From positions 1 through 51,015 of the IMG/VR virus record IMGVR_UViG_2721755676_000003: a DNA stretch of 51,015 bases; one strand, given 5' to 3'. Shown here piece by piece: positions 12,047 through 13,510 of the stretch. Source of the stretch: a virus (Duplodnaviria > Heunggongvirae > Uroviricota > Caudoviricetes). The position numbers were made by a program, and so were the translations under genes. Each line of letters opens with the position of its first letter. Position 1 is the stretch's first letter. The notes beneath the pieces were generated by a model. It saw only the letters and a list, made by a program, of their open reading frames with translations. It was not told the DNA's origin and made no database searches.

Positions 12047-13510
12047 ATGCTAAAGGTAATTAAAAAAGGTATTGGCTTCAATAAAACAGAAAAAAGATTG
12101 ATTGAATTAGCTAATAATGCCTTTATAGGTTTGTGGTCATATCCTAATGTTTATAGTGATGAGGGTTTTGCAAAAAATAAATCGGGTAAAGAAGTGTGTG
12201 ATTTATTAGTGGTTTTTGAAAATAATGTAATTTTGTTTTCTGATAAAGACATTAAGTTTAATGATGAAATTGATATCCATATTGCATGGAAAAGATGGTT
12301 TAGGAGAGCAGTAATCGAATCAGCGACTCAACTGCATGGAGCTGAAAAATTTCTAAAAGAGCAAAGTGACAGATTATTTCTTGATAAAGAGTGTAAGGAG
12401 AGGTTTCCAATAACAATTGACAATAAGATGCGCTTTTTTTTGATCGCAGTAACTAGCAATAGCGCAATTCCAGCTTTCAATTACTTTGGTCGTATCGCGG
12501 AAGGAAGTTCTGGAACTTTAGTAAATTGCTTTCCCTTTGGAATAAAGGAAAGTATGGAGCAACCTTTTACTGTTGGAGATTTGTATCCTGATAAGACATT
12601 TATCCATGTTTTAGATGAACTATCGTTAAAATTACTATTCTCTGAGCTGGATACAATTACTGACTTCGTTGACTATTTAAAAGAGAAAGAACGAGTCGTG
12701 AGGACAGGTTTTCTTGGATTAAGTCCTGGTGAGGATGACACACTGGGTGCCTACTTGATCGGGCATGGATTAATAGTAGATGAAAAGAAGGTGCCAAAAA
12801 ACTCGTTTGTTCGAATTGCAGAGCATGAATGGACTGAACTAAAAAAATCGCAATTATATGAATATTATACAGCTCTAAAAAAAGGTAGCTATTTTTGGGA
12901 TGAAACAGTACAACGTTTTTCCGATTCCATATTAAATGCAACTGTTGGTCTAGGTAAGGAAAATGACTTTCTTAGTCATGAGGAAACATTAAGACAATTA
13001 GCCTCTGAAAGCAGAGAATCAAGATATTATTTATCTAAATCATTCTTGGATAAATTCAAGCAAGTTCCTTCTGACAGAAGAAGCTCCAGAATCGTAGAGT
13101 CTTTAGATGAAAAAGGAAAGTTTTATATTTTTTTGTTTTTTCCGCGTGAAAAACATTTATCATATGAGGAATATAGAAACGAACGTTTTTCTTGCATTCA
13201 AATGTATGCGTTAACAGCTAAATATAAATACCCACAAATAAAAAAACTCATAGTCATTGCTACTGAAAGTAAAGACTCCGAAGGTCGTTCAGAGGATGTG
13301 GTATTTTGTCGATTTGATAACCCCCTTTCAAAAGGCGAACGTCTGTTTGTACAATCAGTGATGCACGAATATAGCATACTTACTGATTTCATTCCAAAAC
13401 CGAACAATAAATTAAATTTGTCACCGATAGTTAAAAGTGACAAGAAACCTGGAAGGAATGAACCTTGTTTTTGTGGATCTGGTATAAAATATAAAAAATG
13501 CCATGGATAG
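12047..13510 (+). CDS. SEC-C motif protein of unknown function (AT-rich cargo)
   Basis: 487-aa ORF ending in [14 protein letters not shown] (SEC-C metal-binding motif); strongly AT-rich relative to phage backbone. Confidence 0.6.
   Translation: [487 protein letters not shown]

Follow-up and report, generated by a model that had tools for sequence, protein, structure and literature searches.

The 51,015-nt stretch of viral DNA analyzed here (IMG/VR record IMGVR_UViG_2721755676_000003, positions 1 to 51,015; hereafter the window) represents a prophage of the lambdoid kind (Rac-like, RecET) with its integration site beside dcp/ydfG, and it raises the question of what one strongly AT-rich gene in it, coding for a 487-aa protein with a SecA-type tail, is for. 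An earlier note, made from the sequence alone, had pointed to the SEC-C motif at the end of this protein and to a possible nuclease core near its start. We found that the protein has three parts: a head with the predicted PD-(D/E)xK fold, carrying the residues E15, E49-x-x-D52, S65-[DE]66-K67, and Q95, a second half of ~220 residues, and an optional tail. The reading that we favor, with somewhat more confidence than doubt, is that of a self-contained nuclease, borne by mobile elements and acting as a one-protein defense against phages (or against competing elements).

Predicted fold and conservation of the N-terminal domain

An AlphaFold2 (AF2) model of the protein, built on an alignment of 38 diverse homologues, had a mean predicted local distance difference test score (pLDDT) of 89.8 and a predicted template modeling score (pTM) of 0.86, with disorder restricted to part of the linker that precedes the tail (Table 1). 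The N-terminal domain runs through a helix (residues 13 to 26), three strands (31 to 37, 48 to 57, and 60 to 67), a second helix (77 to 109), and a further strand (129 to 136), and the modeled domain thus contains the alpha-beta-beta-beta-alpha-beta core of the PD-(D/E)xK superfamily. Taken together, the model and the alignments assign the invariant acidic residues and the lysine to helix 1 and to strands 2 and 3; E15 belongs to helix 1, and Q95 lies in the helix that follows the hairpin of strands 2 and 3. From the modeled structure, we consider this domain probably a nuclease of the PD-(D/E)xK fold. The acidic, strand-like motif that the earlier note had taken for a potential nuclease core (residues 49 to 68) does form a beta-hairpin within the predicted core, with E49, D52, S65, and K67 invariant.

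The candidate active site is well preserved at every depth that we examined. Among 116 full-length homologues (35 to 100% identity), the residues E15, W30, E49, D52, S65, K67, W81, R83, W84, S92, Q95, F174, H187, E229, and R380 were invariant, and residue 66 was D or E throughout. The catalytic candidates of the N-terminal domain were also unchanged in 87 dereplicated metagenomic or viral members, with identities down to 32%. They do not depend on the type of tail, as E49, D52, S65, and K67, together with E15 and Q95, were invariant alike in proteins with a SEC-C tail, with a basic tail, or with no tail. In a deeper alignment, 72 sequences without SEC-C had E49, D52, S65, K67, W81, W84, H187, D206, and E229 invariant, and E15, R83, Q95, and R380 were at least 90% conserved.

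A conserved body with exchangeable tails

The C-terminal half of the body, ~220 residues conserved across the family, has no known fold. In the model, it is helical from residue 229 to 339 and continues as a beta-beta-alpha-beta-beta-alpha subdomain (346 to 442). The linker behind it is variable, ranging from 18 to 51 aa in the homologues with a mean column identity of 0.22. The SEC-C-type zinc motif that had been noticed at the C-terminal end is genuine. Pfam PF02810 matched residues 470 to 487 with 37.3 bits (cutoff, 20.4; E value, 2.4e-9), and the pattern CxCx8C(H/C) is made up of C474, C476, C485, and H486, plus S478 and Y482. The three Cys ligands are kept in 114 of the 116 homologues, and SEC-C is the most conserved segment of the protein (column identity, 0.79). 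Sequence matches of the tail in the PDB were C-terminal peptides of SecA and YchJ, with E values of about 5e-9. Compared to Escherichia coli SecA's metal-binding domain (MBD), as quoted in bioRxiv 10.1101/613315, 15 of 19 positions were identical, far beyond chance, and the Ser and Tyr described there as highly conserved in SecA MBDs are both present. The MBDs of SecA and YecA/AscA bind SecB and ribosomes.

Taking SEC-C as the defining feature, as the first description did, would nevertheless be misleading, since about half of the family lacks it. We counted tails in loci found with a tail-less query. In the 87 dereplicated loci, 51 tails were SEC-C, 24 were strongly Arg/Lys rich, and 12 were neither (one of them a truncated SEC-C); in the best 149 representatives of a library of 1.84 billion proteins, the corresponding numbers were 78, 38, and 33. 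The Arg/Lys-rich tail often reads (P)MNRAxRR...K/R. What is conserved as a unit is the body, to which a basic tail is added as an optional and exchangeable part. Being optional and exchangeable, the tail would have a generic tethering or regulatory role toward a polyanionic partner rather than form the core of the function.

Two further observations concern the tails. A recurring basic C-terminal motif, (P)MNRAxRRxxxREARKxAKKxxK, was often found in members without SEC-C (at loci L147, L163, L196, L125, L142, L159, and others); Pfam and PADLOC found nothing in these proteins, and the motif could be linked to none of the known modules. A relative at L146 (1744-3876, plus strand) has 710 aa, with the SEC-C knuckle internal and followed by an extra C-terminal domain of ~200 residues without a Pfam match.

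Family size, distribution, and annotation

The family is large. With a profile of the body, we recovered 3,063 clusters (50% identity) at an E value of ≤1e-3 and 1,357 at ≤1e-30; all have about 445 to 580 aa and align end to end with this profile, and the protein of the window has hundreds of homologues of ~490 aa. They come from Proteobacteria, Acidobacteria, and Desulfobacterota, and in IMG/VR, 20 viral contigs carry relatives. A tblastn search of 50,697 deposited phage genomes gave no match, though both PHROGs and IMG/VR contain the family; in PHROGs, the full-length match was phrog_18195, a family of unknown function. A scan of genome contigs with the full alignment was dominated by the SEC-C pattern and yielded one true full-length relative among 80 loci. 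Within E. coli, the gene is rare, as about 9 of 5,426 complete genomes have it (at the sensitivity of megablast).

Annotation resources recognize the tail and little else. The first 450 residues had no match in Pfam, NCBIfam, or PADLOC, and neither Pfam nor PADLOC recognized the body in any of the tail variants. Pfam found SEC-C alone in 38 plus 4 family members, apart from one stray NERD match (E value, 0.23). The PADLOC matches of the protein, to CBASS E2 models and PDC-S12, are confined to the tail, and relatives with a basic tail or none gave just one chance-level match, to MTase_II (E value, 0.003). The earlier statement that the protein could not be assigned to a known defense family thus still holds. 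Since the family is absent from Pfam and PADLOC, current defense annotation is blind to it. A SEC-C-like segment is present near the C terminus in several CBASS models (E2 and E1-E2) and in PDC-S12, a candidate system.

Many homologues are entered in RefSeq and UniRef as “YecA family protein,” “YecA/YgfB family protein,” “zinc chelation protein SecC,” or “Preprotein translocase subunit SecA.” Such naming is misleading, being based on no more than the 20-residue tail, and RefSeq's “YecA family protein” should not be spread further. Two of the names, and the MBD tail that is also common to YecA, would speak for a housekeeping accessory protein of the Sec pathway, of the YecA/YchJ type. However, the NCBIfam matches are located only at residues ~434 to 487 and score 13 to 33 bits vs cutoffs of 68 to 267, no UPF0149 or other Pfam domain was found in the body, and the low-GC gene (33.7%) was always in mobile elements in the inspected loci of the few E. 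coli genomes that have it. Membership in YecA (UPF0149 plus MBD) was rejected, and we regard the housekeeping role as effectively refuted, with hardly any chance left to it. Neither a housekeeping assignment nor homologues consistently outside mobile or defense contexts, either of which had been named at the outset as speaking against defense, turned up in the inspected loci or the family searches.

Genomic context of the homologues

The two E. coli copies outside the window that we inspected (of seven full-length matches) are each the single gene of the psu-int hotspot of a P4-like satellite, beside delta and psu. This hotspot is a reservoir of antiviral systems (Rousset 2022, PMC9122126), and Table S1 of the same paper has a single-gene “SEC-C” cassette, WP_053286111, which its text does not take up; it very probably belongs to the same family. 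Elsewhere, the homologues adjoin an integrase and Abi_C in Marinobacter, the integrase of a satellite in Citrobacter, a transposase in Pseudomonas, MNT/HepT within an integrative element in Electrothrix, a replication gene of the P2 type in Serratia, and a reverse transcriptase in Oxalobacteraceae. One in a 6.8-Mb genome is next to transposases, AbiEii, and MazE/PIN, and one in Pyrinomonadaceae is next to an SNF2/PDDEXK giant, DUF4238, and a deaminase. All 10 of the distant loci inspected by hand were mobile or rich in defense genes. Residence in mobile or defense hotspots and a sporadic distribution, as for defense genes, are what we observed, by inspection rather than by an enrichment statistic; the defense-island setting that the earlier note proposed to check is found in this sense, the P4 hotspot included.

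We clustered the open reading frames (ORFs) within 4 kb of the gene in the 87 dereplicated loci, 81 of which had any neighbor. The 520 neighboring ORFs fell into 492 clusters. The most recurrent family was a phage integrase, in 5 loci, and no neighbor family exceeded this number, i.e., there is no conserved partner gene. As neither an adjacent methyltransferase nor an antidote is conserved, restriction-modification and toxin-antitoxin pairs are excluded. Other recurring neighbors were a helix-turn-helix protein, LexA-S24/methylase fusions, SNF2-type proteins, a serine recombinase, a SIR2 plus HerA pair, and a lambdoid DUF968 gene. At L151 (3591-6631) and at one other, independent metagenomic locus, the SIR2_2 plus HerA (DUF87) pair, which we take to be a defense-type architecture, was directly upstream of the gene of the family.

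The gene and its prophage island

The ORF list gives an intact ORF with an ATG start and 487 codons plus stop, and the RefSeq coding sequence WP_065304123.1 (E. coli 210205630) has identical ends (Table 1). The ORF has a GC content of 33.7%, vs 49.6% for the whole window; the upstream spacer measures 334 bp (38.6% GC) and the downstream one 445 bp (38.0% GC). The gene, its C-terminal end, its AT richness, and the AT-rich flanks of about 330 and 440 bp had all been read correctly from the sequence. The upstream spacer presumably holds the promoter of the gene; promoter and terminator scans gave signals at chance level only, and an Rfam search of this spacer found no match. Silencing by H-NS, which had also been suggested, is pure conjecture.

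The gene is located in a variable slot between the replication gene P and dinI. The slot holds a low-GC island of 5.4 kb (38.4% GC), with O and P on one side and dinI, DUF1367, rusA, and the Q antiterminator gene on the other. The whole island was found in 1 of the 5,426 complete E. coli genomes, and the identical protein is found mostly in Enterobacter; together with the low GC content of the slot, this supports the horizontal acquisition that had been proposed. Sister prophages, mostly of Enterobacter, have the identical protein in the same place, with an Ion_trans_2 gene (294 aa) in the place of the HEPN and 414-aa genes. A blastn alignment to one of them (L018) is continuous over window positions 9000 to 13795 (96.4% identity) and resumes only at 16515. 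The junction of the swap is thus at about 13795 and the swapped cassette spans 13796 to 16514, with flanks 92 to 96% identical among the sister prophages. This break in homology, with different genes on either version, indicates that the slot exchanges cargo cassettes. Both the HEPN/414-aa cassette and its Ion_trans_2 alternative look like further single-gene defense candidates.

TABLE 1 Features of the gene, its product, and the surrounding island (window coordinates)
Feature	Position	Strand	Remark
Whole gene	12047..13510	+	Stand-alone prophage cargo gene
N-terminal domain, aa ~10-228	12074..12730	+	Predicted FokI/BspD6I-like PD-(D/E)xK nuclease fold
Beta2-beta3 hairpin, candidate active site G47, E49, D52 ... 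S65-D66-K67	12185..12250	+	Model strands 48-57, 60-67
C-terminal half, aa 229-445	12731..13381	+	Fold without assignment; proposed regulatory/sensor region
Flexible linker, aa 446-466	13382..13444	+	pLDDT <50 at 448-464
SecA-type metal-binding domain (SEC-C knuckle), aa 467-487	13445..13507	+	Pfam PF02810
Upstream spacer	11713..12046		Common to the divergently oriented Mrr_cat gene
Downstream noncoding stretch	13511..13795		Co-travels with the gene in sister prophages (blastn)
Mrr_cat restriction-endonuclease-like gene, 278 aa	10876-11712	-	Pfam, 43 bits; weak PADLOC PDC-S02 match
HEPN-domain gene	13956-14729	-	Island gene
414-aa hypothetical gene	15041-16285	-	Without family match

The Mrr_cat gene is adjacent in all sister prophages, and we considered an obligate Mrr_cat plus SEC-C pair. 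This was rejected, as the SEC-C gene is alone in the P4 hotspots and Mrr_cat is alone, at 96% nucleotide identity, in P2-like prophages of 8 other complete E. coli genomes, between the tail-fiber assembly and tail-sheath genes and accompanied by another hypothetical gene, of 317 aa. Rather than an operon, the island is a patchwork of single-gene modules that are independent of one another. Elsewhere in the window, at ~6333 to 7735 on the minus strand (L001, 15534 to 16936), a DUF6932 gene overlaps a 310-aa hypothetical one between ydaE/recE and a cI-like repressor gene, with a GC content of 40 to 43%; here the prophage may have another cargo slot.

The position of the gene also allows for a nuclease that serves the phage or satellite itself, in the lytic cycle or in counter-defense, expressed with the early operon and helping the element rather than the lysogen. 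Such an enzyme might break down the DNA of the host or of a competitor, act in the processing of replication intermediates, or attack the nucleic acids of host defenses. The gene is directly downstream of P and shares its orientation with O, P, and the gene for the Q antiterminator, with its island neighbors Mrr_cat, HEPN, and the 414-aa gene on the opposite strand, as is usual for morons, and some of the relatives on the 20 viral contigs are next to Phage_GPA-type replication genes or next to genes that appear capsid-like (by sequence features only). However, the gene has an upstream spacer of its own, its copies in the psu-int hotspot of P4-like satellites have the opposite orientation to delta and psu, and many others are beside transposases or in chromosomal islands without phage genes. 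The sporadic presence would also be unexpected for a core lytic function, and we consider this role unlikely.

A selfish nuclease gene, homing-like or addiction-like, whose cleavage promotes its own insertion or retention in the hotspots without benefit to the host, seems slightly less likely still. The similarity to the copies in the P4 hotspots starts and stops almost at the ends of the ORF (query positions 1248 to 2715, i.e., window positions 12047 to 13514), as if the ORF alone moved, and a nuclease-fold protein without a partner is scattered among unrelated elements. Known homing endonucleases, however, are compact, unlike a 487-aa protein with a conserved second half and optional tails. 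The gene does not interrupt other genes, these slots are already known to exchange defense cargo (PMC9122126), and the other genes in the slot of the window (Mrr_cat and HEPN) are defense-like. Without an accompanying immunity gene or methylase, the addiction model has no antidote.

A probable one-protein nuclease defense

In the defense function that we favor, the N-terminal domain would cleave nucleic acid, with DNA as the default for the fold, and cleavage would be Mg2+ dependent and sequence nonspecific, as in the cleavage module of FokI. The C-terminal half, which has no structural relative and is the likely sensor of the protein, might restrain the nuclease until an infection cue appears (a phage protein or a replication intermediate), after the example of Upx, described below. 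The basic tail, either SEC-C or K/R rich, could tether the enzyme to a polyanionic partner such as the ribosome, SecB, the membrane, or nucleic acid. SecA-type domains also bind acidic phospholipids. This specific regulatory picture is drawn by analogy, and in its particulars it is tentative and rather doubtful.

Several points weigh against a nuclease defense. Strand 3 reads S-D-K where the PD-(D/E)xK motif has (D/E)-x-K, i.e., Ser65 occupies the position two residues before K67, and the divergent relative WP_150671509.1 has F-D-R instead, so that activity of the domain is not assured. In the Cfr10I/NgoMIV group, S-x-K versions of the motif are active, with the acidic residue coming from elsewhere. 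The nuclease assignment comes from predicted structure, and our searches found no bridge to nuclease families at the sequence level: Foldseek with the full model against the PDB gave nothing significant (best, RecE at an E value of 0.04), hhalign of the family profile against a verified FokI cleavage domain and the neighboring Mrr_cat protein gave probabilities of <1%, and hidden Markov model searches of PDB sequences returned tail matches only with the full profile and one spurious match with the deep tail-less profile. PADLOC-DB v2.0.0 (2023), which includes Upx, Shedu, and PDC candidates, has no model that matches the body. In the searchable literature, we found no paper that names the family and no experiment on protection. 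The evidence from context does not amount to a formal statistic of enrichment, and the loci on viral contigs are phage by construction. The co-directionality with the early-right operon makes a lytic-cycle function possible, and auto-inhibition and tethering are analogies rather than observations.

The noncanonical S-D-K (or F-D-R) would also suit a protein with an inert nuclease fold, i.e., a nucleic acid- or ribosome-binding regulator, for example, a modulator of translation or of the Sec pathway that benefits the element. The ability of SecA-type tails to bind ribosomes and SecB, and the “YecA family” label that RefSeq gives to some members, point in the same direction; even so, we think that such a regulator is very unlikely. 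It also seems quite improbable that the SecA-type knuckle and the (P)MNRAxRR... tail are interchangeable modules for docking on the ribosome (or SecB), making this a family of ribosome-tethered nucleases that watch translation. If this were the case, a ribosome-docked nuclease could either detect at the exit site that a phage is taking over or cleave mRNA, rRNA, or nucleic acid associated with nascent chains in that place, and this way of docking would recur in other SEC-C-tailed defense proteins, i.e., DS-23 and Rugutis (see below), some CBASS E2 proteins, and PDC-S12.

Comparison with known systems

A mobile-element nuclease of this type belongs to a crowded kind, the stand-alone PD-(D/E)xK defense candidates of prophages and satellites. 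What is new relative to them is the unassigned second half, the SecA-type or K/R-rich tail, and the size of a family that has gone unannotated. Among the defense genes validated of late, nucleases that consist of a single PD-(D/E)xK protein are becoming the commonest class (PMC13092281). In the DefensePredictor study (Science 2026, PMC13092281), in which 42 of 94 candidates were validated and the validation rate followed the log-odds (r = 0.95), the domain seen most often in the validated ones was PD-(D/E)xK. The same study labels WP_150671509.1 (490 aa) a “predicted novel defense gene” with a log-odds of 13.05, and we found this protein to be a divergent member of the family (BLASTP E value of 1e-41, 28% identity over 419 residues).

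Among validated systems of that study, DS-23 (“E2DP,” WP_020231147.1) is a single-gene E. coli defense that lowers the efficiency of plating of several Bas phages by 10^3.6 to 10^5.7 (PMC13092281). Like the protein of the window, it joins a nuclease-like part and a SecA-type tail in one polypeptide, with the SEC-C zinc finger at residues 693 to 716 and a PD-(D/E)xK-like stretch, GEIDILV...IVQAKSK, and it is remotely similar to Upx. However, DS-23 has 719 aa and its nuclease motif is at ~330 to 350, behind an N-terminal region of ~300 aa, whereas the 487-aa protein has its predicted nuclease domain at the N terminus. An hhalign comparison of the family profile with the first 399 of the 719 residues of DS-23 gave a probability of 0.5%. 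The resemblance is one of convergent domain architecture, not of membership, and what the two have in common is limited to the SEC-C finger and the class of fold.

Upx (Gao_Upx; Nat Commun 2026, PMC13099982; PDB 9wuf) is a single-protein, dual-nuclease defense in which a FokI-like catalytic core is auto-inhibited by a middle domain until a phage protein relieves the inhibition. It differs in its length (the 9wuf chain has 1,212 residues and the paper numbers the core to residue 1272), its two nuclease domains, its canonical D...ExK, and the lack of a SEC-C tail, and neither PADLOC nor sequence comparison matched it to the protein of the window. Unlike FokI and BspD6I, the type IIS restriction and nicking enzymes after which the predicted fold is named, the protein of the window has no DNA-recognition domain of the type IIS kind and no cognate methyltransferase, as no partner gene recurs. 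The motif of FokI is D450...D467-T-K469, from which D52...S-D-K differs, and no similarity to FokI could be detected at the sequence level.

The tail itself forms the same knuckle, CxCx8C(H/C), as the MBDs of SecA, YecA (AscA), and YchJ, including their conserved Ser and an aromatic residue, and a flexible linker precedes it, as in SecA. The body is unrelated to that of SecA (an ATPase), YecA (UPF0149), or YchJ (NTF2-like), and in contrast to these proteins, the knuckle is dispensable in the family or swapped for a K/R-rich tail. Another parallel is Rugutis, a validated single-protein defense of Lactococcus plasmids (NAR 2024, PMC11381338), in which SEC-C is likewise the sole recognizable feature and the remaining fold is without assignment. 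The presence of the knuckle in CBASS E2, PDC-S12, DS-23, and Rugutis suggests that it is a recurrent accessory of immune proteins. The three natural tail versions of this family are a ready-made experiment on the role of SEC-C in immune proteins, and SEC-C motifs recur in validated but unexplained systems such as DS-23 and Rugutis.

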